A DNA stretch of 64,000 bases from Candidatus Acidiferrales bacterium (GCA_035573755.1 DATLZY010000005.1:33190-97189); one strand, 5' to 3'. Positions 24,408-62,640 are shown, numbered from the stretch's first letter. Notes: generated from the sequence alone by a model not told the origin. Translations and numbers: made by a program.

Positions 24408-24506
24408 CTGGTGTCCCGAAGAAGAGCAATACCGGCCGAACGGTTAGACTATAGAGCGCTCCCGATGAGGGGGCAAACGGCCGGGCACGGTAGAGGAAGG
24501 CGCGAG

Positions 24507-25058
24507 ATGGGAAAGGCCTTGGATTACGCATCGTTGGCGGTTGCGCAGTCGTCATGCTCCGGGCTGTCGTCTCCGGCCGAGTGGCATGGTCAGATCTGTG
24601 GGCTGCTGTGCGCTCATAGATCGGTCGAGCCGCTCGACGCATACCTTCGTGCTTGGGCCCGCGACGCGGACGATAGGCTGGATGCGAGCCTCATGGCCAT
24701 GGTGCAGGCGATCGCGGAGCGTAGCCATGCAGCACTGAGTGGTATGGAATTCGATTTCGAACTGCTGCTGCCGGACGATTCAGTCGCACTGGATACGCGG
24801 GTCACGGCACTGGCCGAGTGGACGCAGGGATTTTTGGTCGGTGTCGTCGAGGCAGGAGCTACTTGGTCAACCGCCCCAGCGGTCGTGCGGGAGGTGATCG
24901 CGGATTTCGCCGAGATCGCGCGCCTGCGGGGCGGTGGGCTGGAAGATGAGGATGATGAGGGGGCGTATGCGGAGCTTGTCGAATACGTGCGCATGGGCGT
25001 GGTGCTGATCTATGGCGAAGCCCCGTTGCATGGCGATGCGGGAGGTCGCCGCCAATGA
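24507..25058 (+). CDS. ygfB: UPF0149 family protein YgfB
   Basis: AEWHGQICGLLC...ALAEWTQGFLVG...acidic C-terminus. Divergent from zapA and upstream of pepP as in E. coli. GAGGAAGG RBS. Confidence 0.8.
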   Translation: MGKALDYASLAVAQSSCSGLSSPAEWHGQICGLLCAHRSVEPLDAYLRAWARDADDRLDASLMAMVQAIAERSHAALSGMEFDFELLLPDDSVALDTRVTALAEWTQGFLVGVVEAGATWSTAPAVVREVIADFAEIARLRGGGLEDEDDEGAYAELVEYVRMGVVLIYGEAPLHGDAGGRRQ

Positions 25059-37368: not shown

Positions 37369-38076
37369 TCAAGCCGCTGCGCGCCGCTGGATCAACACCG
37401 TGAGCAGGGTCAGACCTGAGCCGAGGATCAAAGGGCCCCAGACCTCCGGTGCACGCCATGAGACTGGCATGTGTCCGCTCAGCATGTCGACTGCCGCCAC
37501 ACCGATCCAAGCCCACATTAGCACATGCGGAATCGCGCCGATGAAGGTTCCGACCAAATAGTCGCGTAGCCGGATGTTCATGACGGCCAGTGCCCAGTTG
37601 GTGGGGGGCAGGGCGAAGAAAGTGAGTCTTGCGAGGGCGACGGTGCGCAATCCCCGCTGCTGGAAATGCCGCTCCAAGATGGGCAGGAATCGCTTCAGAT
37701 GGGGTTCGACCAGGGAGCGCCCCAGGCTTCGACTCAAGGCATAGATAATGACCGAAGCGCTCAACAGGCACGCCATACCCATCAGAGCTGCCCCCAGTCG
37801 ACCATACAGCAAGGCGGCGCAGGCAATGACGACGATGGTGGGAATGTTGGCGACGATGACAGCTGTGCCCGCCACGTAGAACACCAGGGGGCCGAATGGC
37901 GCGACCGCGGCGTGATAAGTGCGAATCGACGTCAAGGTGGCCTGAACATCGCCGGCTTTGAAGCTGGGGCTGAATTGCGCAGCGAAACCGATTACACCGG
38001 CGGCGCAGGCGAGAAGCAGGACACGTCGCCATCGGCGACGGCGTTCGGAGCTGTTTTTCCCATCCGAATCTGCCAT
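37369..38076 (-). CDS. TVP38/TMEM64 (DedA-related) family membrane protein
   Basis: 235 aa, multi-TM, with PFGPLVFYVAGTAVIV...LLYG...ARLTFFALPPTNWALAVMNI typical of the family. Starts 9 nt after the sulfotransferase stop. Confidence 0.75.
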   Translation of the reverse strand: MADSDGKNSSERRRRWRRVLLLACAAGVIGFAAQFSPSFKAGDVQATLTSIRTYHAAVAPFGPLVFYVAGTAVIVANIPTIVVIACAALLYGRLGAALMGMACLLSASVIIYALSRSLGRSLVEPHLKRFLPILERHFQQRGLRTVALARLTFFALPPTNWALAVMNIRLRDYLVGTFIGAIPHVLMWAWIGVAAVDMLSGHMPVSWRAPEVWGPLILGSGLTLLTVLIQRRAAA

Positions 38077-38085
38077 TGTCGATTG

Positions 38086-39108
38086 CTAAGGCCGCGGCTG
38101 ACGGGACAGCTGAGGAATCCGGCGCTTGAGTCGCTTCATGAAGCGAGGCTCATAGTCCTGCAAGGGGCTCTTCAAGTGGCCCTTGCGCGGCTGGGGTTTG
38201 ACGGTGTCCGGATCGCTCACAAAAGGCAGATCCAGAAAAGCAGCCAGTTCACGCAGATGCGTTGCGGGGCGCTCGTTGAAGGACTGGTAATCCAGCGCAT
38301 AGACGCTCTGGGGCGGAAGTTCTTCCAGGTCGCGGTAGTAAGCTGCCAGTTGGTGTTCGACCGCCATGGCCGCGAATGGCCGGATGACGGCCTCGAAGGG
38401 TCGGTTGCCCATCACGATCTTGATGCCGCGCAGGAGTTTCCAGCCGGCATAGACGGCGCTCAGGCTGCGCTTGCCGAATAGGGTCTTGAAGTTGTCGATC
38501 AGAAGCGTCTGGAAGGGCTGGCTGCCGGAAAGCAGCGAAACCACGGCGTTGATTTGGCTGTTGAGGATGTAGAGCGGATCACGTGTGATGTAGATGAATC
38601 GCGCGTTCGGGAACCATTTGAGGATGTTGCGGGCGTTACCGGTATCCCAGGGATTTTTCAACAGCACGGCTTGTGCCCCGGGGGTAACGACCTGCAGTTT
38701 TCGGCACACCTCATGCAAAAACGCCTGGTTGTGTGAGGTGACTTTCATGCTGAAGCTGTGGTTGCGCAACATCCAACCATATTCCTCGACCATGCGATCG
38801 TCCACATACACGGCATCGAGCTTACGATCCGTAATGCCGAGGCGACGGAAAAGCATATTTAGTCGCTGCCGATCACGACTCTCACCGCCTTGTACATGGT
38901 TCTTGAGCAGCCGGTCATAATAGAAAAGGTGGTACAGACTGAGGTTGGCCAAGGGAAAGCAGCGCGCCAACGAGTCGTAGAGAAAAGTCGTTCCGGAGCG
39001 GTGCAGGCCCATGATGAAGACTGGCCTGGCAACGGTTTTCTCGATCAAGGGAAGAAATGGGACGTCTTCTCCGGACAGGGGGAACCCCGGATCGATCGGC
39101 AACTTCAT
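38086..39108 (-). CDS. sulfotransferase-family protein
   Basis: PAPS 5'-phosphosulfate-binding loop GLHRSGTTFLYDSL near the N-terminus and a later RDP motif (ITRDPLYILNS). 340 aa, no TM. Confidence 0.8.
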   Translation of the reverse strand: MKLPIDPGFPLSGEDVPFLPLIEKTVARPVFIMGLHRSGTTFLYDSLARCFPLANLSLYHLFYYDRLLKNHVQGGESRDRQRLNMLFRRLGITDRKLDAVYVDDRMVEEYGWMLRNHSFSMKVTSHNQAFLHEVCRKLQVVTPGAQAVLLKNPWDTGNARNILKWFPNARFIYITRDPLYILNSQINAVVSLLSGSQPFQTLLIDNFKTLFGKRSLSAVYAGWKLLRGIKIVMGNRPFEAVIRPFAAMAVEHQLAAYYRDLEELPPQSVYALDYQSFNERPATHLRELAAFLDLPFVSDPDTVKPQPRKGHLKSPLQDYEPRFMKRLKRRIPQLSRQPRP

Positions 39109-39207
39109 GGAAGTCTCGCGTGGTAAATTTTTTATTATTCTAAGTCCAATTGCGATCGAGCGGTATCGCGGCGGGACGGAGACCGTCCCGCCAGTGATTC
39201 GCGCGCC

Positions 39208-40476
39208 TCAGGCGGCGAGTACCCGCTGATCCGTTTGCGCCGACCCGCGGAGATGGTTCAAGATCAGTTGCGCCGCACGCTGATGACCGCCTGCCCGCAC
39301 CGACTCACCCACAAGCGCAGCCTGGCGCCGATACGAGGGTTCTTCCAGAATGTGTTCGCTCAGATTCCGCAGGCGCATCGGTGTGACTCGCCCAGGCCTC
39401 AAGCACCGTCCGGCCCCGAGTTGCTGGATCCGGCGCGCGTTGTAGGCCTGCTCGATTTGTTGCGGGACCATGAGCAGTGGTACGTCGAAATACAGACTTT
39501 CATTGATGCTGTTCATGCCGCCATGGCTAATGAACAGACTCGCATGCTGCAGTACCTTTAGTTGCGGCACCCAGGGGAATACCCGGATATTGGTGGGGAT
39601 GATGCCAAGATCAGCTAGGGCCGTCTGCTTGCCCACGGATATGACGACTTCATAGGGTGAGTCAGCGAATGCCGCGATGCATTGCCGGTAAAAGTCCAGC
39701 TTCTGATTGTGCACGCTACCCAGGGAAATGTAGATCAGAGGCCGCGAGGCTTCTGACGCGCGTTGAAAGACTTGGTCATCTCGGTATTCAGGGACCGATG
39801 CGCCGACAAAGTACACATGCTCTCCCATGGTGTCGGCATAGGGCTGGTAGCGCGCTGAGGTGACGCAGATGGTCATTTCCCCGGGGCGACGAAAAATGCG
39901 CAGCATGTCCTTGAGCAAGCTCTGGCGGGGGAGGCCGAGACTGTCCAGCATATCGCGGAAACGACGTCGGGCACTGATAGCGAGCTTGGCGCCGCGGATG
40001 CGGCTGTCGAGGCGGTAGTTGCGGGGGATCATGGACAACATGTCGACATTCATCCAATGGCGCGCATCCAGACTCATACGCGTCGTCCAAAGCACGTGTG
40101 TGACGACCTTGACCGATGGAATGCCCAGCCGGTCGGCCAAGAGGGGACCCCATGGAGCACAGCTATCGTAAATAATATAGTCCGGTCGATCCTCTTGTAG
40201 TTCCCGCAGTAATCCAAGCAGGCACTGTTCGGTCATTTCAAAGAGCTCAATGCCGACGGACACGAGGTCCGCTGCAATATCTGGCTGATGATCATAGGCT
40301 GACCACTTTCGGTAGTCTCGGGCTTCTGCGCCGAGCGCGTTGAATTTCGGGGCAACCTCAGGGTCTGCATAAAAAACGACCTGCTCGCCGTGGCGAATGA
40401 GCTCCGACACGATGCCGAATGCCGGGTTGATGTGGCCCGTGGCTCCAGGCAGATTGAAAAAAACGCCTTTTCCCAT
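39208..40476 (-). CDS. GT1-family glycosyltransferase (MGT / UDP-glycosyltransferase type)
   Basis: N-terminal NLPGATGHINPAFGI and C-terminal HGGMNSINESLYFDVPLLMVPQQIEQAYNA, a UDP-sugar binding signature of MGT/UGT enzymes. Confidence 0.85.
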   Translation of the reverse strand: MGKGVFFNLPGATGHINPAFGIVSELIRHGEQVVFYADPEVAPKFNALGAEARDYRKWSAYDHQPDIAADLVSVGIELFEMTEQCLLGLLRELQEDRPDYIIYDSCAPWGPLLADRLGIPSVKVVTHVLWTTRMSLDARHWMNVDMLSMIPRNYRLDSRIRGAKLAISARRRFRDMLDSLGLPRQSLLKDMLRIFRRPGEMTICVTSARYQPYADTMGEHVYFVGASVPEYRDDQVFQRASEASRPLIYISLGSVHNQKLDFYRQCIAAFADSPYEVVISVGKQTALADLGIIPTNIRVFPWVPQLKVLQHASLFISHGGMNSINESLYFDVPLLMVPQQIEQAYNARRIQQLGAGRCLRPGRVTPMRLRNLSEHILEEPSYRRQAALVGESVRAGGHQRAAQLILNHLRGSAQTDQRVLAA

Positions 40477-40988
40477 CCGCGTTTGCTCCTATGTCAGTAG
40501 CGATGGCCGAACACTTCTTGCTCCGGGCTATCTAGCAAATTAAATGCCTTTTTCTGAGCCTCGTTCCGGCTTCCAGATTTGCAGTGACTCGAGAAGCAGC
40601 TTAATCACATTGAAAAAAGACATGAGCGACTCATGGATCAGGCGCAACCCTTGTATGCCGTGCCGCTTGTCCCGTAACAAATTCAGTGCAGCTGAACTTG
40701 GCTATGATCTAGGAATAATCTCAACTACTTATCCTGATGAACTGATATTTCATGCGTGTGAAGATCAGCGATCTTTTTCGCCGTCATGCATCGGGTCACA
40801 TTGGCGAGGCGGCACCACGTCGCCGGTCAGGTGTCGAAACGCAGTAAAATGCGTCCCGGCAGAGAAGAAGATGACCTATCTGGGCATGCTGCTGTTGACA
40901 GCCCTGCCAGGGTTCCCGTGACGGCCGTCGCCGTCAGGCTGCGAAGTTCGCCACGAGGCGACGGCTTGCGCCTTGTTCGCGCTGAAAT

Positions 40989-41951
40989 CTAGCGTGTCAA
41001 GCCTTCCCAGCGATCTCGTTGTGGCGAATGGTGTTCCTCCAGCAATGCGTGCAGCACGAATAGTTCCGAGACTACTTCTGGGGGGAACCCCTGGCGTCCG
41101 CCACGGGTATCCACGAGCAGGGAATCGATGTACTTCGCGCAATCGGCCCGCGGCCAGCTCTCCACAATCTTGTCTGCAATGCGTTGAAACTTACGTTCCA
41201 GTGCGCAGCGAGGATCTTCGTTGGGCGGCGGCAGGGGTGTCACGGGAACTGGTTGCGAGCCGGTGCGACCCAGTGACGGCTTTGGCGGCAGGGTCATTTC
41301 GCTCGGAGGTTCGGGCTGTATCGCTCGTGGAGGATTCAGTGTTCCTGGAGGTATTGCCAGCGAATGGGTGAGGGTCAGGCCGCTTACGACCTTGGGGGTG
41401 AGGCGGGCGCGCAGTTTTAGTAATTCCTCGGCTTCGTTCAGTGTAAAAGCCGGGCGCCCCGGGCGCGCACTGTCCAGCGCCAGTGTGGCCAGAAATTTTC
41501 GTTGCTGGTCCCGGTCACCCATTCCGTTGAGGAGTTCGAGCAGCTTCGGATGGCGGCGGTTGAGTCCGGATCCGTCGGGATACAGCTGTTTCCACTCATT
41601 GAACGTGGGAGCCGCGTTGCCGGAAGCAGCTGCGTAGCGCTGCGCGATGGCGTCGAATCGGTCGCGATTGCCGCTTGCATGGTGGATATCGAGCAACATG
41701 ATCCAGTCGTCGGTATGGTAGGGTTTCGGCGTCTCAAGGTGGTGCTCAAGGATAAAAGCGGCACGTTCACGGTTCCCATTTGCCAGGGCATAGAATGCCA
41801 GCCATCTTGCCTGCCCGTCCTCCGCTCGCGCCAGAAGTGGTTTGCGCTGACCTGAAGCAGGATTGATCCGCGCACGGGATGCCAGCAGCCAGCCCAGTAG
41901 TAAACCGGTCGCTAACGCCCCCAGGGGGATCAACCACGCGAAAAGTGTCAT
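40989..41951 (-). CDS. hypothetical membrane-anchored protein (TM, helical region, Pro-rich linker, small conserved-looking C-terminal domain)
   Basis: N-terminal TM MTLFAWLIPLGALATGLLLGWLLA and a Pro-rich tract (PPGTLNPPRAIQPEPPSEMTLPPKP...VTPLPPPNEDP). C-terminal block ERKFQRIADKIVESWPRADCAKYIDSLLVDTRGGRQGFPPEVVSELFVLHALLEEH. No family assigned. Confidence 0.55.
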   Translation of the reverse strand: MTLFAWLIPLGALATGLLLGWLLASRARINPASGQRKPLLARAEDGQARWLAFYALANGNRERAAFILEHHLETPKPYHTDDWIMLLDIHHASGNRDRFDAIAQRYAAASGNAAPTFNEWKQLYPDGSGLNRRHPKLLELLNGMGDRDQQRKFLATLALDSARPGRPAFTLNEAEELLKLRARLTPKVVSGLTLTHSLAIPPGTLNPPRAIQPEPPSEMTLPPKPSLGRTGSQPVPVTPLPPPNEDPRCALERKFQRIADKIVESWPRADCAKYIDSLLVDTRGGRQGFPPEVVSELFVLHALLEEHHSPQRDRWEGLTR

Positions 41952-42034
41952 GTCGGTGCCCTGTGATGCCGAAGGTCTCTTGCGTTCAGAGACTCTACCG
42001 GTCTTATCGGCGCTTGCCTGTCAAAGGTTGAATG

Positions 42035-42901
42035 TCATATAGCTGCGCCACTCAGCCCCAAGCGACTGCAAATCGTCAAGCTGGGTTCGGCCTGATTGAG
42101 TGTGTAGAAGTGGAGGCCCGGTATCGGCCGTGCCAGCAATTGTCGGCACAGGGTGCTGACGACCTCATCGCCGAAGGCGCGCAGGGCACGCTCATTGTTT
42201 TCCAGCGATTCCAAACGCCGCCGAATCCAGCGGGGCACTTCTGCACCGCAGGCGTTAGAGAAGCGTGTCAGTTGCGTATAGTTGGTGATGGGCATGATGC
42301 CAGGCGTGACGGGTATGTCGACACCCATAGCCCTGATTTCCGTGATGAACTGGTGGTAGGCATCGGAAGCATAAAAATATTGGGTGATTGCCCCATCGGC
42401 GCCGGCTGTGACCTTTTCCCGAAAATGGACCAGGTCGTCCTGAGCATGACGTGCCTGTGGGTGGATCTCTGGGTAGGCAGCCACTTCGATGTGGAAGTGA
42501 TTGCCGGTTTCGCTGCGGATGAAGTGCACCAGATCCCGCGCATAGCGAAATGGGCCGGAATCGCCCATGCCCGACGGTAGATCGCCCCGCAGGGCCACCA
42601 GGCGCCGGATCCCGGCGTCCTGATAGCGGCGCAGGATATCGCGGAGTGTGTCTTCCGTGGCACCGATGCAGGACAGGTGGGGCGCGACGTCCACGCCTGT
42701 TTCCCGCATCAGTGCCAGCACCGTCTCCAAGGTGCGTTCCCGCGTCGACCCGCCGGCGCCGAAGGTGACCGAAAAGTACACCGGTTCGAGTTCGGCGAGA
42801 CGGGTTGCGGTTTCCATGAGCTTGCTCATCCCGGCCGGCGTCTTGGGCGGGAAAAACTCGAAGCTCAGCGCAGGAGCCGGTTCTGTCGTATGCCCACCCA
42901 T
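42035..42901 (-). CDS. metF: methylenetetrahydrofolate reductase
   Basis: 288 aa, SFEFFPPKT...FSVTFGAGGSTRERT...HFYTLN motifs. Confidence 0.92.
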   Translation of the reverse strand: MGGHTTEPAPALSFEFFPPKTPAGMSKLMETATRLAELEPVYFSVTFGAGGSTRERTLETVLALMRETGVDVAPHLSCIGATEDTLRDILRRYQDAGIRRLVALRGDLPSGMGDSGPFRYARDLVHFIRSETGNHFHIEVAAYPEIHPQARHAQDDLVHFREKVTAGADGAITQYFYASDAYHQFITEIRAMGVDIPVTPGIMPITNYTQLTRFSNACGAEVPRWIRRRLESLENNERALRAFGDEVVSTLCRQLLARPIPGLHFYTLNQAEPSLTICSRLGLSGAAI

Positions 42902-44404: not shown

Positions 44405-44490
44405 GGATGTCGGAGAGCGCCGTTGAATCGCTTCCGAGCCTGGGATCGGACCTGCGGGCCGATCTTGCAGCGCTCCTCGGAATGCCCGGC
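44405..44490 (-). promoter_or_regulatory. SAH riboswitch in the ahcY-metF leader
   Basis: Minus strand reads UUCCGAGGAGCGCUGCAAGAUCGGCCCGCAGGUCCGAUCCCAGGCUCGGAAGCGAUUCAACGGCGCUCUCCG. It contains the conserved CGAGGAGCGCUGC...CAGGCUCGG...AACGGCGCUC blocks. P1 is CCGAG/CUCGG, P2 is the GAUCGG/CCGAUC hairpin, and AGCGC/GCGCU forms the pseudoknot. Lies about 80 nt upstream of the ahcY ATG. Confidence 0.85.
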
Positions 44491-44519
44491 AGTATAGCTC
44501 AGCGATGGCGGGCTGCGAA
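44491..44519 (-). promoter_or_regulatory. candidate sigma70 promoter for the riboswitch-ahcY-metF transcript
   Basis: Minus strand TTCGCA-N17-TATACT. The -10 lies just upstream of the riboswitch 5' end and the -35 lies inside the 3' end of the antiporter gene. Confidence 0.35.
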
Positions 44520-45563
44520 GCTGACCAATAGGGTGACGATGGTCAAGGGCACGACAAAGCTCAACATGATGTTGCTGTAGGCCGTCAAGGCATCGTGCTG
44601 CTGTGCCATCAGCAGAAGATAGATGGTGTACGCGGCATAGTAGGCCAGAAAGAGAATACCTTCCCAGCGGGCGATCTGCCGGCCAGTAAGGAGAATGGGA
44701 AGGCAGGCAAAGGCGACCGCCAGCATCACCCACAGATCGAAAGCGCGGGCTGCTTCGGGCACCGTCAAGCCGCCCGGTGCGGCCACGCCAGCTGCGCCGA
44801 GCACGGCCAGAAGGTTGAAAATATTGCTTCCAATCACATTGCCCACGGCAATGTCGCGCTGACCACGCAGGGCGGCGATGAGCGAAGTGGCAATTTCCGG
44901 CATGGAGGTGCCGATCGCCACGAGGGTGAGGCCAATGACGAGATCGCTCACACCGATCAACTTGGCGAATTCAACCGAAGCGCCTACCAGCCAGTCGGCA
45001 CCCAGCACCAATAGACCAAGACCGCCGAAGATCAGAAGCGTCTGGATGCTCCAGTGGCGATCCCACGTGCTGCTGGGGATTTCGACAATGAAATCCGATG
45101 CAGCGTCCTTGGAAGCCCGGCGCGCTTGCGTGACCAGGAAGGCCGTATAAGTGAGGGCCCCGGTAAACAGCAACGCCGATTCGATTCGTCCGACATATCC
45201 ATCGAGCGCCATTGCCACCACGATCAGCGATGCGCCGATCAGGATGGGAATTTCCTGTTGGATGATCTGCTCATGCACCAAGAGCGGGGCGATTACCGCT
45301 GATAACCCCAGGATCAAGAGCACATTGGCAATGTTGCTTCCGACCACGTTGCCGATGGCGAGGTTCGCCGAACCGGAGACCGCGGCGCCGATCGAGACTG
45401 CCATTTCGGGTGCGCTGGTGCCGAATGCGACGACGGTAAGACCGACGACCAGTGGCGTAATTCCCCATGACACGGCGAGGCGCGCGGCGCCACGCACCAA
45501 CATCTCGGCGCCAGCGACCAAGGTCGCCAGGCCGAGCACGAAGAATAAAGCCTGGGTCAGCAT
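44499..45563 (-). CDS. Ca2+/Na+ antiporter (CaCA family, YrbG-like)
   Basis: Two alpha-repeats, [10 protein letters not shown] and [10 protein letters not shown]. About 10 TM, 354 aa. Confidence 0.85.
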
Positions 45564-45566
45564 GGT

Positions 45567-46730
45567 TCAGGCAGTCCAGGCGTTCCGCAGGACCTCCGCT
45601 TTGTCGGTTCGCTCCCAGGTGAAGTCCGGCTCTTCGCGGCCAAAATGGCCGTAGGATGCGGTGCGCTGGAAAATCGGTCGGCGCAGATTGAGCATCTGGA
45701 TCAGTCCACGCGGGCGCAAATCGAAGTGCTCGCGCACCAGCGCGACCAGCCGATCTTCAGGGAGCGTGCCCGTGCCGAAGGTTTCGATGCTGATGGAGGT
45801 GGGTTCTGCAACGCCGATGGCATAGGACACCTGAACTTCGCAGCGACGCGCAAGGCCTGCGGCCACGATGTTCTTCGCCACATAGCGCGCGGCATAAGCA
45901 GCAGAGCGGTCGACTTTTGTGGGGTCTTTGCCGGAGAAGGCGCCACCGCCGTGGCGCGCCATGCCGCCGTAGGTGTCGACGATGATCTTGCGGCCGGTGA
46001 GGCCGCAGTCGCCGACTGGCCCCCCGATCTCAAAGGCCCCGGTGGGGTTGATGAAATACTTGATGTTGCCGTCCTGCCAATGCGCGGGCAGAACGGGCTT
46101 GATGATCTCTTCCATCACAGCTTCGACGAGCATGCCGTGCTCAATGCCGGGCGCGTGTTGGGTCGAGAGCACTACGGCGTCGATGCCCACGGGCCGGCCG
46201 GCGTCGTAGCGTACCGTGACCTGAGATTTGGCGTCGGGGCGCAGCCAGGGCAAGGTGCCGTTCTTGCGCACCTCGGCCTGACGTTGCACCAGCCGGTGGG
46301 AGAGGGTGATCGGCAGCGGCATCAGGACGTCCGTTTCGTCGGTGGCAAAACCGAACATCAGCCCTTGGTCGCCGGCACCTTGATCGAGATCCAGGCCCCG
46401 ACCTTCATCCACGCCTTGGGCAATGTCGGGGGATTGACGTCCGATTTCGGTCAACACTGCGCAAGTGTCGGGGCTGAAACCCATGGCATCGGTATAGCCG
46501 ATTTCGCGGATGACCTCACGCGCGACGCGGTCGAACTCCACTTGGGCGTTGGTCGTGATTTCACCTGCCAGCATGACCAGGTTGTTCTTGACCAGCGTCT
46601 CGCAGGCGACGCGGGCCGTGGGGTCCTGGGCCAGGATGGCGTCGAGAATGGCATCGGAGATCTGGTCGCAGACCTTGTCCGGGTGCCCTTCGGAAACCGA
46701 TTCGGAGGTGAACAAACGGGTTTGAGCCAT
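45567..46730 (-). CDS. metK: S-adenosylmethionine synthase
   Basis: [36 protein letters not shown] and [16 protein letters not shown] motifs. Confidence 0.95.
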
Positions 46731-47011
46731 GGCGAGAGCCCCTTGATGGAGAGGTTGAAGGCGAGTGGTCAGATCAGCGTGGGCGCAAGCCTATCCGATG
46801 GCCGGCACGGTGCCAAGGTTGACACAACACTTGTCATGTAGGGGCGGCAATGCGCGCCGGGAAAGCCGCGACCTTCACGCCGTTGCTGGGGGCAGGCGGA
46901 GCAAATCGGTTGCTGCGCTGGGCACTGGCGGGATTCGCGGTTGTGCCCCGTGCTCCATGGTGACGACAAGTGTCGCTCCGGTCGATGGCACGCCCTTGAC
47001 GCAAATCAATT

Positions 47012-47030
47012 GCAAGAGATTCTCATTTGT
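47012..47030. promoter_or_regulatory. Fur-box-like 19-mer upstream of the OMP/FMN-bind/ApbE module
   Basis: The reverse complement acaAATGAGAATCtcttgc matches about 12 of 19 positions of GATAATGATAATCATTATC by hand alignment, 9/10 in the core AATGA(T/g)AATC. Overlaps a possible TTGCAA-N17-AACAAT promoter. Confidence 0.3.
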
Positions 47031-47066
47031 ATAACAATTAGCAAAAATTGGGGTAGGAAGGTCAAG

Positions 47067-47978
47067 ATGAAATCAGGCAAAAAGATTCGGACCAGGATGC
47101 GCCGCGCAGCCGGCGGGATGTTGAACACAGTGATCGTCTTGGCGGGCTACGCCTTACCCGCAGGCGCTGATGAAAACCTTTTTGGCTATGTGACGGGCGT
47201 CGATACCCTGCCCAAAGGGGCGAGCGAGGTCTATCTGTGGGCGACCGACCGCCGCGACAAGGGCCAAGGCCATTACGCCGCTCAGGATTACCGGATCGAG
47301 TTCGAACGCGGGCTGACTGACCGGCTCACCGGCTCGCTGTACCTCAACTGGCGTCATCACGACATCAAGGGAGCAGCGGATGTCGACGAGAGCGGGAAAC
47401 CGGAATATCCCGATGTCGATCGGTTCGGCTTCCAGGGCGCGCAGGCGTCGATCAAATACAACTTGCTGGACGTCTACACCAATCCCGTCGGTGTGGCGCT
47501 CTATTTCGAGCCGGGCTATTCCGAAATCTTCAAGATCACAGGCCAGGAGCAACAGGAATTGTCCTTGGAGACCAAGCTGATCGTCCAGAAGAATTTCCTT
47601 GAGGATCAGCTGGTTTGGGCGACCAACCTGACACCGGAGTTTGAGGTGCGCAAGTTTGACGGCGAGGAGACCTGGGAAACCGAGCTGGCGCTTGAACTCA
47701 CGTCTGCCGTGTCCTACCGAATCGCAGCCAACTGGTTCGGTGGACTCGAGACACGCTATCACTCCGAATACCCGGACTGGCCGGACAGCGATTTGCGTGA
47801 ACACTATGCGATTTTCGCTGGCCCCACCGTCCACTATGGCGCCCAGCGCTGGTGGTGGACCCTGACCTATCTGCCGCAGCTCACGGGGCGACCCGTGGAT
47901 GAAGCCCGTGACGAAGATCTGCATTTGCATGAACATGAGAAGCGCGAAGTCCGCATGAAACTTGGCTACAACTTCTGA
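47067..47978 (+). CDS. putative outer-membrane beta-barrel protein
   Basis: Signal-like N-terminus, alternating amphipathic strands, Tyr/Trp girdles, and a C-terminal KLGYNF ending in Phe. GGTAGGAAGG RBS. Confidence 0.65.
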   Translation: MKSGKKIRTRMRRAAGGMLNTVIVLAGYALPAGADENLFGYVTGVDTLPKGASEVYLWATDRRDKGQGHYAAQDYRIEFERGLTDRLTGSLYLNWRHHDIKGAADVDESGKPEYPDVDRFGFQGAQASIKYNLLDVYTNPVGVALYFEPGYSEIFKITGQEQQELSLETKLIVQKNFLEDQLVWATNLTPEFEVRKFDGEETWETELALELTSAVSYRIAANWFGGLETRYHSEYPDWPDSDLREHYAIFAGPTVHYGAQRWWWTLTYLPQLTGRPVDEARDEDLHLHEHEKREVRMKLGYNF

Positions 47979-47996
47979 GTACGGGGCGATTCGGCG

Positions 47997-48524
47997 ATGA
48001 ACGAGCGTTCTGCTTTCCTGCTGTCCCTCACGGCGCTGGCTGTGTCGCCGGCCTGCTATGCGGTGCAATACCTTTCGGTGGAACAGGCGCAGGCACTGAT
48101 GTTTCCGAACGCCGTGCTGACCCCCTTGCCCATGACCCTTACGGCCGAGCAGAAGAAGACCATCGAAGCGCGCACCGGGACCATGGTTCGCCAGAGCGAA
48201 CTCAAGCTCTGGCGGGCGGCTACCGGTGGTTATTTCCTGGTCGATCAGGTGCTCGGCAAGCATGAGTTCATCACCTATGCCGTGGCGTTGGACGACAGTG
48301 GAGCCGTGCGGCAGATTGAGATCCTGGATTACCGTGAAACACACGGCGACGAGGTCCGTCGCCCAGGCTGGCGCAGCCAGTTTGCCGGCAAGACCAGCGC
48401 CGATACGCTCCGGGTCAACAAGGATATCCAGAACATCTCGGGCGCCACTTTGTCCTGCGTCCACATCACCGACGGCGTCCGTCGTCTGCTGGCCACCTAT
48501 GATGTCGCTATCCGTCCGCGCTGA
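47997..48524 (+). CDS. secreted FMN-binding domain protein (ApbE substrate-type)
   Basis: Signal peptide (LLSLTALAVSPACYA). Near the C-terminus, DIQNISGATLS matches the flavinylation motif D-x-x-(S/T)-G-A-(S/T). Confidence 0.8.
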   Translation: MNERSAFLLSLTALAVSPACYAVQYLSVEQAQALMFPNAVLTPLPMTLTAEQKKTIEARTGTMVRQSELKLWRAATGGYFLVDQVLGKHEFITYAVALDDSGAVRQIEILDYRETHGDEVRRPGWRSQFAGKTSADTLRVNKDIQNISGATLSCVHITDGVRRLLATYDVAIRPR

Positions 48525-49410
48525 GGCAGGACCCTGGCGGCGTGCTCGGCCGTTGCTCGGAACCTTGGTCGAGATCACCGTGAGCGGGCCGCAACCGGCG
48601 TATCCCGCGGCTGCTTTTGAAGCTGCTTTCGCGGCCATTGCCCGCGTTCACGACCTGATGAGCTGGCATGACGCCGGCAGCGATGTCGGGCGCATCAATC
48701 GCGCCGCCAGCGGTCACTGGTTGCCGATCGATGCGTGGACTGGTGAGGTGTTGCGTGCGGCGCAGATGCTGTTCGCGCGCAGCGGCGGCCTGTTCGATGT
48801 GACCTGCGAGCGCCATCTGCGCCGTGCCGGCATCTTGCCCGATGCGTTGCACCCCGACCCCGAGCGCGGCGGCGGGATGGCCGACCTCATCCTGGACGAA
48901 GGTGACTGCAGTGTGCGCCTCGACCGGCCGCTGAGCATCAACCTCGACGGCATTGCCAAAGGCTACGCGGTGGATCGGGCGGTTGCGGTTCTGCAGGATC
49001 ATGGGGTCGCGGGCGGGTGCGTCAACGCCGGTGGCGACTTGAGGCTGTTCGGATCCAGTGAGCAGGAGGTCGGCCTGCGCAATCCACGCCGGCCGGCCGA
49101 GATCATTCATCTGGGGCGCTACTGCGACCGTGCGGTGGCCACGACCGGGGGATACTTTCTCGATTCGGGGCTGGACGTCGCCAGCGCGGTGATCGATCCT
49201 GCCAGCGGATTGGCGGTGACCTTGCCGGGCAGTATCACCGTCACAGCGCCGTGCTGCATGCACGCCGATGCCCTGACCAAGATCGCCGCCTTGCGGCGTC
49301 CCGATGATGACCTCGTGGATTCCTTGTTCCAGGAGTTGCAGGCCACTGTTCACACGTTTTCGATCGCAGGCGCGGAGGCTGTCCAGGATGACGGTGAACC
49401 GCGTCAATAG
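48499..49410 (+). CDS. apbE: FAD:protein FMN transferase
   Basis: LMGT-like LLGTLVEITV, DVGRIN, GGLFDVT, LDGIAKGYAVD, VNAGGDLR blocks typical of ApbE. The start is uncertain (ATG 48499/48502 overlaps the upstream gene). No clear signal peptide from that start. Confidence 0.85.
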   Translation: MMSLSVRAEAGPWRRARPLLGTLVEITVSGPQPAYPAAAFEAAFAAIARVHDLMSWHDAGSDVGRINRAASGHWLPIDAWTGEVLRAAQMLFARSGGLFDVTCERHLRRAGILPDALHPDPERGGGMADLILDEGDCSVRLDRPLSINLDGIAKGYAVDRAVAVLQDHGVAGGCVNAGGDLRLFGSSEQEVGLRNPRRPAEIIHLGRYCDRAVATTGGYFLDSGLDVASAVIDPASGLAVTLPGSITVTAPCCMHADALTKIAALRRPDDDLVDSLFQELQATVHTFSIAGAEAVQDDGEPRQ

Positions 49411-49885
49411 CGTGCCGCGCTGGCAGCGCTCGTTGCTCTATTCCGCGTTGTCGGGGCTCGCCCTCACAGGTCTTGCCTGGATGATCCTGCATTACGCGAG
49501 CGGGGGATTCGCCGGCGATGACCGGCCTTATGCACTGCTGCACCAGTTCATGGTGTTGCATGGGGTTCTGGGGTATGTGGCCGCCGTTGCCGTGGGCGTA
49601 TTCCTTGGCCAGCATGTGCCTGCCGGTTGGCGTGCGGGTCGCAATCTGGCCACCGGCCTCAGCGTGGCCGCGCTGTTCGCTGTCTTGATGAGTACGGCCC
49701 TGGTGCTCTATTACAGCGGCGAGGAGTCCTTACGCGCATTCGCCAGCCTGGCCCATCAGATGCTCGGTTTGGGCCTGATTCTGGCCGTTCCCCTTCATGT
49801 CGCCCGGCGCCGCGCACGCCGCGCGCTGACGAGGACTGCCGGTGCGAAGCCTGACCGGACTGATGCGGACACTGCAAATATCTGA
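49388..49885 (+). CDS. 4-TM histidine-rich membrane protein (cytochrome b / DUF4405-like)
   Basis: Four hydrophobic helices each carrying His (ILHYA, LLHQFMVLHG, GQHV, LAHQM, PLHV). The start overlaps the apbE 3' end. Confidence 0.6.
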   Translation: MTVNRVNSVPRWQRSLLYSALSGLALTGLAWMILHYASGGFAGDDRPYALLHQFMVLHGVLGYVAAVAVGVFLGQHVPAGWRAGRNLATGLSVAALFAVLMSTALVLYYSGEESLRAFASLAHQMLGLGLILAVPLHVARRRARRALTRTAGAKPDRTDADTANI

Positions 49886-49999
49886 CAACGCTCGAGCTTG
49901 AACGAGGCGGGTCGGCCGTTTTCAGGATATGGTCAGCTTGCCGGTAAGCGGTTCGGTGTCCCGCCGCGTCGAGGCTGATTCTGCTGCGCTCCCAATCGC

Positions 50000-51214
50000 T
50001 CAACCGTGTCCGGTCAGTTGTCCGAAGAGACGAAAACCGCCGACATAGGTGCCCATCGAGGCGCCCAGATTGACCAGCATAAACACCAGAAAGGTGTGCG
50101 CCACCCGGTTGCGCCACCAGCCCGAGATATGGGCGACGTCCTCACGCAAGGTTGCGAAGTCAGCCACACGCGGCTTGCGCAACCACAGTTCCAGTGCCAC
50201 CGCCACCATGCCGGCTCCGATCAAGGGATGCAGGGTCGTGATCGGCGCCGCGAGGAAGGAGCCTATCAGCGTCACAGGATGCGCCAGGGCGATCAGCGCG
50301 CCGACAGCTGCCAGACCGCCCGTCGTCAAGGTCCAGTCGAGCACCAGTTGCCAGCCGAGTTCGGGGCCCCGCACGAAGCCGACCACGAATCCGCCGAGGA
50401 TCAGGATCATGATCATCCACGGCAACAACTGCCCCAGACGGCTGCGGGGTGGCGTGGCGACCAAGCTGACCAGAGCAGTGTCCGGCGGCACCGATGGCGG
50501 CATTTCGAGGTGTCGGACGATCCCATCGAGATGGCCCGCGCCGACGACGGCAAGGATGTGCTGGCCGGGATGCGCTTGGGCGTACTCGCGAAGCTTGAGC
50601 GCCATATATTCGTCCCGTTCACCGATCAGTGCCCGGTAGAGCGGTTCGGCCTGATCGGCAAAGTCGGCAAACGTGTTGTGCAGAATATCGCCCATCTTGA
50701 GTCGCTCGATGTCTTCTTCCGCGATTTCTTCCCGGGTCAGCAGGCTCGCCATCAGGCCGGCGATGAGCCCGGGTCGCTGCCACCAGCGCACGGCAGCGGT
50801 CAATCGCCGCAGCGTAATGCCTACCTCGCGATCGATGAGGACCACGGGCAGACCGGCGCCATCGGCGGCTTCCAGAGCTGCCCGCAATTCCGCGCCAGGC
50901 TCGACGCCGAGCTGATCGGCCAACCGCTGCTGATAGGCGGTCAGCGCGAGATTGGCGGCGACCAGGCCCATCTTGCCTTCGCGCACGACCTGCAGCAGAT
51001 CCATGCGGGCCAGTGCATCGGGATCCTTGAGTGCGGCATGGCGGCTGGGGCACAACTCGACGGCCACGGCATCGAACTGCCCGCTGGGGATGAGTCTGCG
51101 AACGGCTTCCTCGCTGGCTCGCGAGACATGCGCGGTGCCGAGCAGGGTGATGTGGCAGGAGCCCAGGGTGATTTCCCGCAGCGGCTCATCCATAGCGGTG
51201 ACAGGCCGGTTCAC
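50000..51214 (-). CDS. TraB/GumN family protein with a C-terminal membrane domain
   Basis: ITLLGTAHVSRASEEAV, VAVELC and GAGHLDG motifs of the TraB family, followed by about 4 TM. Start options are GTG 51214 (AAGGAA RBS), ATG 51193 and ATG 51307. Confidence 0.75.
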   Translation of the reverse strand: MNRPVTAMDEPLREITLGSCHITLLGTAHVSRASEEAVRRLIPSGQFDAVAVELCPSRHAALKDPDALARMDLLQVVREGKMGLVAANLALTAYQQRLADQLGVEPGAELRAALEAADGAGLPVVLIDREVGITLRRLTAAVRWWQRPGLIAGLMASLLTREEIAEEDIERLKMGDILHNTFADFADQAEPLYRALIGERDEYMALKLREYAQAHPGQHILAVVGAGHLDGIVRHLEMPPSVPPDTALVSLVATPPRSRLGQLLPWMIMILILGGFVVGFVRGPELGWQLVLDWTLTTGGLAAVGALIALAHPVTLIGSFLAAPITTLHPLIGAGMVAVALELWLRKPRVADFATLREDVAHISGWWRNRVAHTFLVFMLVNLGASMGTYVGGFRLFGQLTGHG

Positions 51215-59874: not shown

Positions 59875-60680
59875 TGACCTGCCCCCTTCAGCCGTACCAG
59901 TGATTCGGTTGGGGGGCTGGGGTTGAAGGTTAATGGAATTGGCTGGGTACGGTGTGACGAGCGGCATCGCCGTTGTGTCGGCGTAGCTGCTCTGCGTATT
60001 GGGCCGGCGGTATCCGGCCTATGCTGCTGTGGGGCCGGACCTCGTTGTAGTCGCTGCGCCAGGCGGCGATCTCTGTCCGGGCCTGTCTGAGGTTCTGGAA
60101 CCAGTGCTCATTGCGGCACTCGTCGCGGAACTTGCCGTTGAAGCTCTCGATGTAGCCGTTCTGCATGGGCCGGCCTGGCTCGATGAGGATGTGGCGGATG
60201 TGGTGCTCCTGCGTCCAGGCGATGAAAGCACGGCCGGTGAACTCCGGGCCGTTGTCGGTTCTGACAGCGGCCGGGTAGTCCCTGAATCGCGCTGCCTGGT
60301 CCAGCAGCCGGGTCACGTACAGGCCGCTGATGCCGCAGTCCACAGCAATGTCCACGCACTCATGGCTGAGGTCATCGGCCACGGTCGGGCACTTGATGCG
60401 CCGTCCGTTGGCCAGGCTGTCGCTGACGAAGTCCATGCTCCACACCTCGTTGATGCGTTGGGCGATGTTCAAGGGCGTGCGCTCCATCACCGGGCGCTTG
60501 GCCTGCTTGCGCTTGCGCACCGCCAGATGGGCCGCGCTGTAGAGCCGGTACACCCGCTTGTGATTGACACCGGGAAAGTCGTTGCGCAGCAGGTCGTGCA
60601 CGCGCCGGTAGCCGAAGCGCCAGCGCACATGGGCGATCCCTCCTGGGAGGAGCGTGAGCGAAAGATCTGATGATCCATGC
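59875..60680 (-). mobile_element. 5'-truncated IS3-family insertion sequence (right end plus most of orfB; orfA and left end missing)
   Basis: The plus-strand end TGACCTGCCCCC at 59875 corresponds to ...GGGGGCAGGTCA on the IS strand, the TG...CA termini typical of IS3-family IRs. It lies 55 nt beyond the orfB stop. The inner boundary is approximate. Confidence 0.8.
59930..60628 (-). pseudogene. IS3-family transposase OrfB (integrase core), N-terminally truncated
   Basis: RFGYRRVHDLLR...VNHKRVYRLY...WSMDFVSD...TDNGPEFTGRAF...SFNGKFRDECRNEHWF...RPHSSIG carries the DDE/rve-domain blocks. The frame hits a TAG about 15 codons upstream of the GTG, and no orfA is present. Confidence 0.85.
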
Positions 60681-60708
60681 GGCTCCTAAAGAAAACGCGG
60701 CGGCCCTC

Positions 60709-60737
60709 TTGAACGGTCGTTCAACTGGGAGTATAAG
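60709..60737 (+). promoter_or_regulatory. candidate sigma70 promoter for the pmoCAB-like operon
   Basis: TTGAAC-N17-TATAAG, about 150 nt upstream of the pmoC ATG and just inside the IS-remnant boundary region. Confidence 0.4.
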
Positions 60738-60888
60738 TTGATCCAGGGTCGAGTCGCTATGCCGGATCGGCTCGGAAAAGTCAAGCCGCTGCGGACAAGT
60801 TTTTGCTCCGTAGGGTGGACGGTTCTTCATCCAACGAGATACCCCCTTCTTTGAGAAAGGGGGATCTGCAACAAGAGGAGACACAGTC

Positions 60889-61686
60889 ATGAGTACCGTA
60901 ATGGATCGCAATATCGCGGGCGAGCCCGCAACAGGGACGGAGGCGCCGCGCCCGCCATGGGGCTTAGCGGTTACCGTGACGGCGATCGCGATCGCATTCG
61001 TCGCCCTCGTGAAATGGTATCAACACAGTTTTTCCTGGTCAGTGGGGCTCGATTCATTTTCCGAGGAGTTTCAGATCTACTGGATGCGGATCTTCTATGC
61101 CCAGATCATTCTTCTGCCGGTCCTGGGTTGCATAGGGGCCGTCTGGCTCTGGCTGACTCGCGATCGAGACATCATGAACCTGCCGGCCCGGGATGAACTG
61201 GGGCGGTTTTATGCCATGTTCAGCATTCTCGTCGTAGCGGCGATCGCTCTGATTGCAGCCCTGGGACTGTTGACGGAAGCCGATGCGGCCTGGCATCAAG
61301 TGGTGATTCGGGACACCGACTTCACCCCAACCCACATTTTCCTATTCTATCTGGGGGTGCCTGCCGGTCTCGGCGGCTTGGCGATGGCTTGGATCTGGGT
61401 GCACACGCGACTGCCTTATTTTGCCAATCGTGTGTCCATGCCGCTGTCGCTGGCCATCATCGGCTTCATGTGCGCGGGTCCGGTGGTTGCCTTCAACGAA
61501 TGGGCACATACCTTCTTCTACGCCGAGGAACTGTTCGGTGCGCCGGTGCATTGGTTCTTCGTGCTCGCAGGATTTTTCCTCGTCTTTCTGATCGGTTTCG
61601 TGATTCAGTGCTTGCAACGCATGCATGAACTGAGCCGGGTATACAGCCTGGAGGAGGTGGAGAAGGAGATGGGTTTGGGCCGCTGA
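60889..61686 (+). CDS. pmoC: copper membrane monooxygenase subunit C (PmoC/AmoC family), operonic copy
   Basis: 265 aa, 6 TM. EADAAWHQVVIRDTDFTPTH and NEWAHTFFYAEELFGAPVH ligand blocks. AAGAGGAG RBS. Confidence 0.92.
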   Translation: MSTVMDRNIAGEPATGTEAPRPPWGLAVTVTAIAIAFVALVKWYQHSFSWSVGLDSFSEEFQIYWMRIFYAQIILLPVLGCIGAVWLWLTRDRDIMNLPARDELGRFYAMFSILVVAAIALIAALGLLTEADAAWHQVVIRDTDFTPTHIFLFYLGVPAGLGGLAMAWIWVHTRLPYFANRVSMPLSLAIIGFMCAGPVVAFNEWAHTFFYAEELFGAPVHWFFVLAGFFLVFLIGFVIQCLQRMHELSRVYSLEEVEKEMGLGR

Positions 61687-61695
61687 CGGACAACA

Positions 61696-61733
61696 CCGGA
61701 GCGAATGGTCGAGGGAGCGCCCATTCGCTCCGG
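61696..61733 (+). promoter_or_regulatory. perfect 13-bp intercistronic hairpin between pmoC and pmoA
   Basis: ccggagcgaatgg-N12-ccattcgctccgg with no following T tract. Starts 10 nt after the pmoC stop. Confidence 0.5.
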
Positions 61734-61831
61734 ATCGTCACGATATCGCATCTCCTATTGCGAGGTAGGCTGCTTTTGTCAGCACCAGCCCAAGCTCAAA
61801 CCGAAACCAATGGAAGGATGGAAGGGTTTTC

Positions 61832-62620
61832 ATGGCTATTCAAATCGACACCAGCAATCGTACCGACGCCGATCGAGCGCCGCGGGGAAAAGCGGTCATC
61901 AGCGTCAAGGATCAGATGCAGGCGTGGCGTAACGCCGATCTGTTTTTCTTTCCGCTTATCTCCATCTTGATCGGAGGCGCTGCAGTCTTTCTGTGCGCGC
62001 TGACCGTCGGGGATTGGAGTTACTGGATGGATTGGCGGGATCGGCGCTGGTGGCCTCTGTTGACGCCTCTGCTGTTGCTCGCCTTACCTGCCGTAGCCAC
62101 CTATGCGTTCTGGAAGTATTTCAAGTTGCCGGTTGCGGCAACAGGCTTGGCATTGGGATTCTGGCTTTCCCAGATCGTCAGCCGATATGTGAATTTTCAT
62201 GTATTCGCGGCATTTCCGATGAATTGGGTCATGCCGGAAGTCTGGATCGGTGCGGCCGTCGTTCTGGATGCCGTGCTGCTGATCACCCGCAGCTTCGCCC
62301 TGACCGGATTGGTTGGCGGCATGCTGTGGGGTCTTTTATTTTCGGCCATGAACTGGCCCGTGGTAGCACCCATGCACATGGCGGTTCAATTGGGTGACAA
62401 CGTGATGACTCTGGCCGACTACATGGGCTTCCAGTACATCCGCACGGCCATGCCCGAATATGTGCGCATCATCGAAGCGGGCACATTGCGTACGTTCGGG
62501 ACTCATGTCGCTCCGGTCAGTGCCTTCGTTTCGGGATTCTTTGCCATCTTGGTCTACTACGTCTTCGTATGGATCGGCTCCAAGGGTTCCCGGCCGTCCT
62601 GGCTGGTGAAGCTGGTATGA
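61832..62620 (+). CDS. pmoA: copper membrane monooxygenase subunit A (PmoA/AmoA family), divergent
   Basis: 262 aa. GDWSYWMDWRDRRWWPLLTP, NWPVVAPMHM, YIRTAMPEYVRIIEAGTLRTFG and VAPVSAF blocks parallel canonical PmoA/AmoA. The remainder is divergent. Confidence 0.9.
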   Translation: MAIQIDTSNRTDADRAPRGKAVISVKDQMQAWRNADLFFFPLISILIGGAAVFLCALTVGDWSYWMDWRDRRWWPLLTPLLLLALPAVATYAFWKYFKLPVAATGLALGFWLSQIVSRYVNFHVFAAFPMNWVMPEVWIGAAVVLDAVLLITRSFALTGLVGGMLWGLLFSAMNWPVVAPMHMAVQLGDNVMTLADYMGFQYIRTAMPEYVRIIEAGTLRTFGTHVAPVSAFVSGFFAILVYYVFVWIGSKGSRPSWLVKLV

Positions 62621-62640
62621 GAAAGACAGGAGTGACCGCG

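Follow-up and report, generated by a model that had tools for sequence, protein, structure and literature searches.

Several extracytoplasmic redox systems are known in which apbE clusters with genes for FMN_bind-type substrates and for small haem-b membrane proteins of the MsrQ-like, PepSY-like or DUF4405 kind (Méheust et al., eLife 2021, PMC8238504; Huang et al., mSystems 2024, PMC11334425). MsrQ-like proteins are reported to have six transmembrane (TM) helices (PMC8238504), DUF4405 is a six-TM protein with four central His residues (Huang et al., PMC11334425), and the cytochromes associated with flavinylation have been proposed to act as assimilatory iron reductases (PMC8238504). In Caulobacter crescentus, the operon CC3059-CC3063, which encodes DUF4198, DUF2271, ApbE and a PepSY-type reductase, is a direct target of Fur repression and responds to iron limitation with strong induction (PMC3751524). 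Here we analyze a window of 64,000 nucleotides (nt) from a Candidatus Acidiferrales bacterium (GCA_035573755.1 DATLZY010000005.1:33190-97189), in which positions 47067-49885 hold a cassette of four plus-strand genes. These encode a DUF6662 outer-membrane channel (g1), an exported protein predicted to bind flavin mononucleotide (FMN) (g2), an ApbE-family protein (g3) and a putative four-helix cytochrome b (g4). On balance, we favor the view that the cassette encodes an envelope-spanning electron-transfer chain that is induced by iron starvation and acts as an extracytoplasmic reductase, probably of iron.

The cassette resembles the MsrQ-like, PepSY-like and DUF4405 systems in that apbE stands beside the genes for a small His-rich membrane protein and for a flavinylation substrate that is exported, and the electron flow proposed for those systems is outward, often for iron reduction, as we propose here. 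It differs from them in several respects. The g4 protein reaches the threshold of none of their defining Pfam families (PF01794, PF03929/PF16357 and PF14358) and has four TM helices, compared with the six reported for the DUF4405 and MsrQ-like proteins. The cassette has a dedicated outer-membrane channel, its ApbE lacks both a signal peptide and the residue His257, and its substrate motif lacks the Asp at position -6. The Caulobacter operon is likewise an ApbE envelope cassette, but its substrate is DUF2271, its membrane component and accessory proteins are different, and it contains no DUF6662 channel, FMN_bind protein or four-TM cytochrome. Judged from the sequences, the cassette appears to work like the known flavinylation-associated cytochrome systems but to belong to none of them.

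Gene order and co-conservation

The four open reading frames (ORFs) lie where an earlier note on this DNA had placed them, and the tight packing with two overlapping junctions that it described was confirmed. The genes g2 (47997-48524) and g3 (48499-49410) overlap by 26 nt, and g3 and g4 (49388-49885) overlap by 23 nt, given a g4 start at ATG 49388. This ATG, which has GGAGG 9 nt upstream, is most likely the start of g4; the ORF-maximal start at ATG 49304, taken in the earlier note, gives an overlap of 107 nt with g3. A good Shine-Dalgarno sequence, AGGAAGG, precedes the first gene, g1 (47067-47978). A simple promoter and terminator scan of 46700-50100 returned nothing beyond the expectation from shuffled sequence, and an Rfam search detected no riboswitch in the intergenic region between metK and g1. 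Co-transcription of g1 to g4 as one operon appears to be the best explanation of the layout.

We surveyed loci seeded by DUF6662, with one genome per species, and obtained 65 distinct loci whose downstream sequence extended for 2.7 kb or more. In 54 of them, DUF6662 was followed by FMN_bind, ApbE and the cytochrome, in this order; only ApbE was missing in five loci (four from Methylophilaceae and one from a gammaproteobacterial metagenome-assembled genome, MAG), and DUF6662 stood alone in six. FMN_bind and the cytochrome therefore kept the same order in 59 of the 65 loci. A lack of co-conservation in other genomes was among the results that the earlier note had named as refuting its reading, and the reading passed this test. 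A scan seeded by FMN_bind reached at least 581 species, and 78 loci were compared: the cassette was complete in 55, while 14 contained FMN_bind, ApbE and the cytochrome without DUF6662. In about ten of these 14 loci the upstream ORF ends in a C-terminus of the outer-membrane-protein type, and a Porin_O_P-like porin was present in four of the five such ORFs scanned, as well as upstream in locus L008. This pattern supports the retention of an outer-membrane channel position though the family changes, and with it the dedicated outer-membrane component that the earlier note had postulated, since the slot is kept even when a Porin_O_P-like porin fills it.

Seven genomes, from Candidatus Macondimonas and related gammaproteobacterial MAGs, share the set of four genes and its order; in one of them the whole block is inverted relative to TraB. 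Overall, carriers are found among the Alpha-, Beta- and Gammaproteobacteria (Pseudomonadota), Verrucomicrobiota, Acidobacteriota and Bdellovibrionota, in unrelated chromosomal contexts. They include sphingomonads and the cultured Variovorax paradoxus, Ralstonia syzygii, Nitrospirillum, Sulfuriferula multivorans and Fontimonas. When 1882 ORFs from the flanks were clustered all against all, no recurrent fifth gene emerged, whether iron transporter, reductase or regulator; the clusters reflected lineage-restricted synteny only, and their representatives were housekeeping or unannotated. Because no gene travels with the cassette beyond lineage-level synteny, the cassette is, as far as gene neighborhoods tell, a self-contained module.

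These co-conservation data refute a chance adjacency, in which the four genes would share nothing more than a strand and form no functional unit; we give this explanation a negligible probability. We found nothing in its favor; in the simple scan, no clear promoter or terminator delimiting the unit was seen. Against it stand the recurrence of the order in 59 of 65 and 55 of 78 loci, across phyla and beside different neighbors, the overlapping coding regions, and the inversion of the block as a whole in a related genome.

Promoter sequences and probable iron control

Among 70 cassette promoters, 17 matched the Escherichia coli Fur consensus at 14 or more of 19 positions, compared with 0.4 expected from dinucleotide shuffles, and 22 matched at 13 or more positions, compared with 1.75 expected. 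The best matches (17 of 19) were GATAATGATAACGATTATC in a Methylophilaceae MAG and GATAGTGATAATTATTATC in an alphaproteobacterial MAG. A position weight matrix (PWM) refined on the cassette promoters of other taxa, with the Macondimonas clade excluded, converged on a Fur-box-type palindrome, GCnAATGAGAnTCATTCnC, and in most loci its sites are found a short distance ahead of the start codon. In sphingomonads the site is GCTAATGCGAATnATTCGC; it includes AATGCGAAT, the core of AATGCGAATCATTGCATT, a Fur-box-like sequence that is listed upstream of SLG_04380 in Sphingobium SYK-6. Fur1 of this organism binds the SLG_04380 promoter region in an electrophoretic mobility shift assay. Approximately one third of the cassette promoters contain no recognizable Fur-like site. 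A literature search combining Fur regulon, ApbE and FMN-binding found no paper.

The single best PWM site in the entire 64-kb window is the one in this promoter, a Fur-box-like operator at 47012-47030 (GCAAGAGATTCTCATTTGT, complement ACAAATGAGAATCTCTTGC, not assigned to a strand). It lies 37-55 nt upstream of the g1 ATG and overlaps a -35-like TTGCAA. The AT-rich promoter block has a core, GATTCTCATT, that is invariant in five related promoters. Taken together, iron control appears well supported for the cassette family and suggestive for the promoter in this window, because there it rests on a half-site and the cross-species context. The earlier note had guessed at iron as a substrate, and this guess gains independent support from the Fur-box-like operators found ahead of the cassette in many taxa.

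The same architecture could serve an acceptor other than iron, such as a quinone or humic shuttle, Cu(II), an oxidized periplasmic protein or metabolite (as in MsrPQ-like repair) or oxygen. The promoters that lack a Fur-like site, and the weakness of the window's own site, are compatible with this alternative, as are the absence of any iron transporter or iron gene linked to the cassette and the cargo of the solved barrels nearest to g1 (COG4313, NanC and FapF), which consists of hydrophobic or acidic organic compounds or polypeptides rather than metals. We nevertheless consider it unlikely. The enrichment of Fur boxes is about 40-fold over shuffles and extends over alpha-, beta- and gammaproteobacterial carriers. 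In addition, the cassette encodes no catalytic partner such as MsrP or a reductase, which would leave g2 to act as the terminal reductase.

The putative cytochrome b

The g4 protein, of 165 amino acids, is a putative di-haem cytochrome b. Its AlphaFold2 (AF2) model consists of four long helices (pLDDT 90), and the loop Arg and Lys residues, read from the sequence by the positive-inside rule, place both termini in the cytoplasm. Four His residues are invariant in alignments of 18 and 38 sequences that extend to approximately 30% identity: H58 and H76 on TM2, and H123 and H137 on TM4. H58 and H123 are located near the periplasmic face, and H76 and H137 near the cytoplasmic face. Two bis-His haems b are classically held in this way, by one His pair at each face of the membrane, and we putatively assign them to g4. 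Most, though not all, relatives also conserve H35 on TM1, and TM3 contains no His. Thus, of the description in the earlier note, the four TM helices stand, a His in every helix does not, and the likeness to DUF4405 amounts to a resemblance at the superfamily level only. The family is large: 18 close relatives were found in a database clustered at 90%, and a profile search recovered 1873 representatives at 50% identity.

Comparisons with known families gave weak matches. Against Ni_hydr_CYTB (PF01292), g4 scored below threshold (E 0.0069-0.0099, 16.1-16.6 bits, cut-off 30.1), and against DUF4405 (PF14358) it scored E 0.026 (15.5 bits, below the cut-off of 26.7). Weak matches to Ni_hydr_CYTB occurred in 13 of 38 relatives, and to DUF4405 in 4 of 38. 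No match to MsrQ-like (PF01794) or PepSY-like (PF03929, PF16357) families was found for g4 at E ≤ 1, or for the 38 relatives at E ≤ 0.01. The top Foldseek match was the cytochrome b of E. coli hydrogenase-1, HyaC (probability 0.97, TM-score 0.51, E 0.34), and the g4 profile found nothing significant among all PDB chain sequences. NCBIfam has no model for g4, nor for g1. These results suggest that g4 is a remote, unclassified relative of the di-haem cytochrome b families and not a member of DUF4405.

The Ni_hydr_CYTB family, which includes E. coli HyaC and FdnI-type proteins, shares with g4 the four TM helices and the four conserved His residues, and it provided both the top Foldseek match and the most frequent weak Pfam match. 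It differs in that g4 scores below its threshold and has only ~14% identity, in that the cassette contains no hydrogenase or formate dehydrogenase partner, and in that the presumed electron flow is opposite. Proteins of this family accept electrons from periplasmic enzymes, in hydrogenase and formate dehydrogenase systems. Because g4's best resemblance in both fold and Pfam is to Ni_hydr_CYTB and HyaC, an inward flow deserves mention, in which g2 would oxidize a periplasmic donor entering through g1 and g4 would pass the electrons to the quinone pool in the manner of HyaC and FdnI. This direction is improbable in our estimation. The cassette encodes no dehydrogenase, an isolated FMN domain would be a poor oxidant for the likely periplasmic donors, and Fur-type repression suits acquisition, not respiration. 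Furthermore, the flavinylation-associated cytochromes described so far have all been proposed to work outward (PMC8238504, PMC11334425).

The exported FMN_bind protein

The g2 protein is an exported, RnfG/NqrC-like and putatively FMN-binding protein that matches Pfam FMN_bind (PF04205) above threshold (E 9.7e-10, 39.4 bits, cut-off 22). It begins with a signal peptide encoded at 47997-48062 and ending CYA|VQ. Among 126 FMN_bind relatives, 120 have a hydrophobic signal core, and an RR pair occurs in 10. In two Panacagrimonas-like cassettes (loci L160 and L165), which carry a Porin_O_P-like outer-membrane protein, the FMN_bind N-terminus is like that of the twin-arginine translocation (Tat) pathway (MNRRRFVLMGSSALASALLP...), whereas elsewhere it is of the Sec type.

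The S-G-A-T site of g2 is S148-G-A-T151, and T151 (codon 48447-48449) is the predicted flavinylated Thr. The g2 profile aligns over its full length with RnfG (9eri_G, 3e-8), and T151 falls on the Thr of the RnfG G-S-T motif, which we take to be the flavinylation site of RnfG. RnfG and NqrC, subunits of Rnf and Na+-NQR, are the best sequence relatives of g2, but they have a membrane anchor where g2 has a cleavable-looking signal peptide. In addition, g2 remains below the NCBIfam cut-offs for both (TIGR01947, 22.9 vs 102; nqrC, 17.2 vs 144). No rnf or nqr partner genes were found in the flanks of the cassette.

The pattern I-x-N-I-S-G-A-T-L-S-x-x-H is conserved across 125 g2 relatives, and the family motif can be written D-I-[KRQ]-N-I-S-G-A-T-L-S-[CS]-x-H. 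The canonical ApbE flavinylation motif is D-x-x-[S/T]-G-A-[S/T], with an Asp described as "strictly conserved", although changing this D to A had only minor effects in one tested system (PMC12052999). The earlier note had matched the C-terminal DIQNISGATLS of g2 to this motif. The S-G-A-T core agrees and is present in all 125 relatives; the canonical Asp does not, for position -6 is Q in g2 and K, R or Q in the family, and the Asp, present in 106 of the 125, is out of register at position -8. A His at +5 is nearly invariant (119 of 125). It closes a [C/S]-x-H triplet 3-5 residues past the predicted flavinylated Thr (g2 residues 154-156, 48456-48464), in which C occurs in 73 of 125 relatives. 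The triplet resembles a metal-ligand site and might bind a metal substrate.

The ApbE-family protein without a signal peptide

The g3 protein is a divergent member of the ApbE family and a putative FMN transferase that uses flavin adenine dinucleotide (FAD), i.e. an FAD:protein FMN transferase. It matches Pfam ApbE (PF02424) above threshold (E 2.7e-42, 145.6 bits, cut-off 25.6) and solved ApbE structures, e.g. 1vrm at 1.3e-17; the NCBIfam equivalog PRK10461 is not reached (22.4 vs 498). Its sole sensible start is ATG 48499. Across approximately 60 loci, no more than a few residues separate the opening of the ApbE frame, or its first start codon, from the conserved (R/K)R(A/C)RPLLGT, the start of the ApbE fold, and in several of these only 1-2 codons of open frame precede the Met. 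No signal peptide or hydrophobic N-terminus was present in any of the relatives examined in these ~60 loci. The earlier note had remarked that ApbE lacks an obvious signal peptide although its substrate is exported. This oddity is real and is conserved in every relative examined, and since it is conserved, an alternative start codon does not account for it.

Catalysis by ApbE has been attributed to a center of Ser241, His257 and Asp285 (Vibrio cholerae numbering), with His257 as the general base (PMC12052999). The equivalent of Ser241 is Thr in g3, and among 120 relatives it is Ser in 108 and Thr in 12. The equivalent of Asp285 is kept in 118 of the 120, and the Mg-ligand Thr of ADALT is also kept. 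The position of His257 is occupied by Ala in g3 and, among the 120 relatives, by Pro in 60, Ala in 26 and His in only 15, so this residue is usually absent. Because the enzyme and the substrate motif are both divergent, the ApbE and the FMN_bind protein of the cassette look like a co-evolved pair.

Several explanations for the missing signal peptide were tried and rejected. The g3 frame is open upstream to GTG 48226, but this stretch lies inside g2 and is non-hydrophobic, and in many relatives the ApbE frame opens merely 1-6 codons before the start. Export of ApbE as a frameshift fusion with g2 does not fit loci L027, L035, L045 and L046, where the ApbE frame opens after the end of FMN_bind and there is no overlap. 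Tat export of a folded, pre-flavinylated g2 does not fit the scarcity of RR among the 126 signal peptides. Finally, the RRxRPLLGT of ApbE is not a Tat signal, since its RR precedes the first strand of the ApbE fold and not a hydrophobic region.

Flavinylation of the unfolded g2 pre-protein ahead of Sec export is conceivable, because ApbE recognizes a seven-residue tag (PMC12052999). We tentatively propose, as a specific version that we hold to be rather unlikely in all its parts, that g3, lacking a signal peptide and His257 and coupled to g2, transfers FMN to the unfolded pre-protein in the cytoplasm, where FAD is available, and that Sec export follows. The product of this route would form the working part of a Fur-controlled, trans-envelope ferric reductase with its own channel, of a kind not described before and spread over hundreds of species. 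The invariant +5 His of the substrate motif might then stand in for the missing base of ApbE. In the account given in PMC12052999, a cytoplasmic ApbE of Klebsiella pneumoniae flavinylates a soluble fumarate reductase (Bertsova et al. 2014) and, like g3, has no signal peptide; its substrate is cytoplasmic, whereas the substrate encoded beside g3 and coupled to it carries a Sec-type signal.

The other remaining option is that g3 has a different role and that a periplasmic ApbE acting in trans flavinylates g2, or that g2 binds FMN non-covalently. In that case g3 might bind or hydrolyze FAD, or hand over flavin at the cytoplasmic face of g4. The five cassettes without ApbE include four from Methylophilaceae that still keep N-I-S-G-A-T-L-S, which implies that a trans-acting ApbE is able to serve a g2-type substrate. 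The absence of a signal peptide in all of the loci examined in detail and the loss of the His257 equivalent in most relatives point in the same direction. Precedents may be found in the ApbE homologue Ftp of Treponema pallidum, reported as an FAD pyrophosphatase (PMC4767422), and in the control of ApbE specificity by localization, as cited in PMC12052999. On the other side, 54 of 59 cassettes retain a g3 whose translation is coupled to that of g2, and its Ser241 and Asp285 equivalents and its Mg-ligand Thr are preserved. The joint divergence of enzyme and substrate motif suggests co-evolution, and no ApbE is known to have a redox role. We judge a g3 that is not the flavinylating enzyme of g2 to be doubtful.

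The outer-membrane channel

The g1 protein belongs to DUF6662 (Pfam PF20367; E 1.4e-49, 169.7 bits, above the cut-off of 27). We found 141 homologues, and PF20367 was present in all 120 of those listed; a literature search for "DUF6662" returned no searchable paper that mentions the family. The N-terminus is basic and then hydrophobic, with a signal peptide at residues ~1-34, and the C-terminus is GYNF. The AF2 model, built with 32 homologues, predicts a barrel of 12 β-strands (pLDDT 91), and its Foldseek matches are the 12-strand channels FapF (2.6e-8), COG4313 (4rl8) and NanC, and also CymA. The description of g1 in the earlier note as a barrel-like outer-membrane protein ending in GYNF agrees with these predictions. 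COG4313 (Pput2725, PDB 4rl8), FapF and NanC resemble g1 in predicted barrel size and fold, with TM-scores of ~0.5-0.6, and one DUF6662 homologue also matches PF13557. They differ in having only ~11-13% identity to g1, and DUF6662 shows conserved charged residues of its own, together with a His/Glu-rich loop. FapF- and NanC-type channels serve amyloid secretion and sugar-acid uptake, whereas DUF6662 is linked to a redox cassette.

Two segments are conserved in the alignment of 32 DUF6662 sequences: an N-terminal DENLFGY segment and the His/Glu-rich loop LHLHEHEK, which precedes the last strand of the barrel (residues ~276-296, 47892-47954). Within the loop, E294 is invariant, and H290 and E291 are nearly so. 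The loop resembles a metal-ligand site and might bind a metal substrate.

In two close relatives of the locus, the DUF6662 gene (L001 5721-6587 and L003 5685-6584) is 43-47% identical to 47067-47978 of the window, while identity is 76-93% for the three downstream cassette genes and 86-97% for the flanking genes. In L002, a third relative, the outer-membrane protein is 93.5% identical to g1. The outer-membrane component looks like an exchanged or rapidly diversifying allele. Tandem DUF6662 genes precede the FMN_bind gene in ten loci (L027, L066, L069, L070, L074, L078, L099, L105, L113 and L163).

Proposed mechanism

In the model that we favor, g4 would be an inner-membrane four-helix cytochrome b with two haems held by the His pairs of TM2 and TM4. 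Electrons would enter g4 on the cytoplasmic side, with quinol or a cytoplasmic reductase as the donor, and move to the periplasmic face. There, g4 would reduce the covalent FMN that g3 attaches to T151 of the exported g2, and the reduced g2 would pass the electrons to a small oxidant, most likely chelated Fe(III). The g1 channel would admit the Fe(III) chelate to the periplasm or pass the Fe(II) product. Haem and FMN binding, the direction of the electrons and iron as the substrate are what we infer for this cassette.

A number of observations weigh against this model. Transfer of electrons from ubiquinol to FMN is thermodynamically uphill in the absence of a membrane potential or a cytoplasmic donor. 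The g4 protein reaches the gathering threshold of no Pfam cytochrome family and has no significant match to the sequences of solved structures; the Foldseek match has a weak E-value, and the four-helix bundle is a generic fold. The g3 protein lacks a signal peptide while its presumed substrate, g2, carries one of the Sec type, and it lacks the general base His257. The Fur-like site in the window scores 11 of 19 against the E. coli consensus, which is unremarkable and essentially a half-site, and no iron transporter (Feo, VIT1 or a TonB receptor) was found among the flanking ORFs. Finally, localization is reported to control the specificity of ApbE in K. pneumoniae, in work cited in PMC12052999.

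Surroundings of the cassette

Other features of the window were recorded in passing. Upstream of the cassette, on the minus strand, lies a methyl-cycle block consisting of metK (45567-46730), a Na/Ca exchanger (44499-45563), ahcY and metF (42035-42901). An S-adenosylhomocysteine (SAH) riboswitch (RF01057, 64.3 bits, 44408-44484, minus strand) is located immediately upstream of the S-adenosylhomocysteine hydrolase ORF. The region 38000-42000 has a GC content of 0.57-0.58, compared with ~0.65 elsewhere, and contains a sulfotransferase, a UDP-glycosyltransferase and one ORF without a Pfam match. A 6S RNA (RF00013, 87.4 bits, 23659-23843, minus strand) adjoins a ZapA-domain ORF at 23887-24642.

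Within 59930-63957 there is a complete copper membrane monooxygenase operon in the order C-A-B, with AmoC at 60889-61686, AMO/AmoA at 61832-62620 and Monooxygenase_B at 62569-63957. An insertion sequence (IS)-type integrase (rve, 59930-60628) lies on the opposite strand directly before it, and the GC content there is ~0.56-0.60. The region may represent a mobile locus for a hydrocarbon or ammonia monooxygenase.

Implications

Flavoproteins modified by ApbE, together with small membrane cytochromes, form a recently recognized and largely uncharacterized class of extracytoplasmic redox systems, to which the cassette would add a widespread member. The ten systems of the published surveys and the later DUF4405 class are defined by Pfam families that g4 fails to match, and an ApbE without a signal peptide falls outside the signal-peptide filter of the eLife survey (PMC8238504). 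The model offers a concrete candidate role for two families of unknown function, DUF6662 and the four-TM His protein, and ties both to iron starvation. The carriers include cultivable organisms, which makes experiments feasible.

A flavin transferase that has no signal peptide and yet is kept beside a Sec-exported substrate presents a topological puzzle, and its solution would show how flavins reach the periplasm. Flavinylation before export, if true, would be a new maturation route for extracytoplasmic flavoproteins, one that bypasses the unsolved need for periplasmic FAD.

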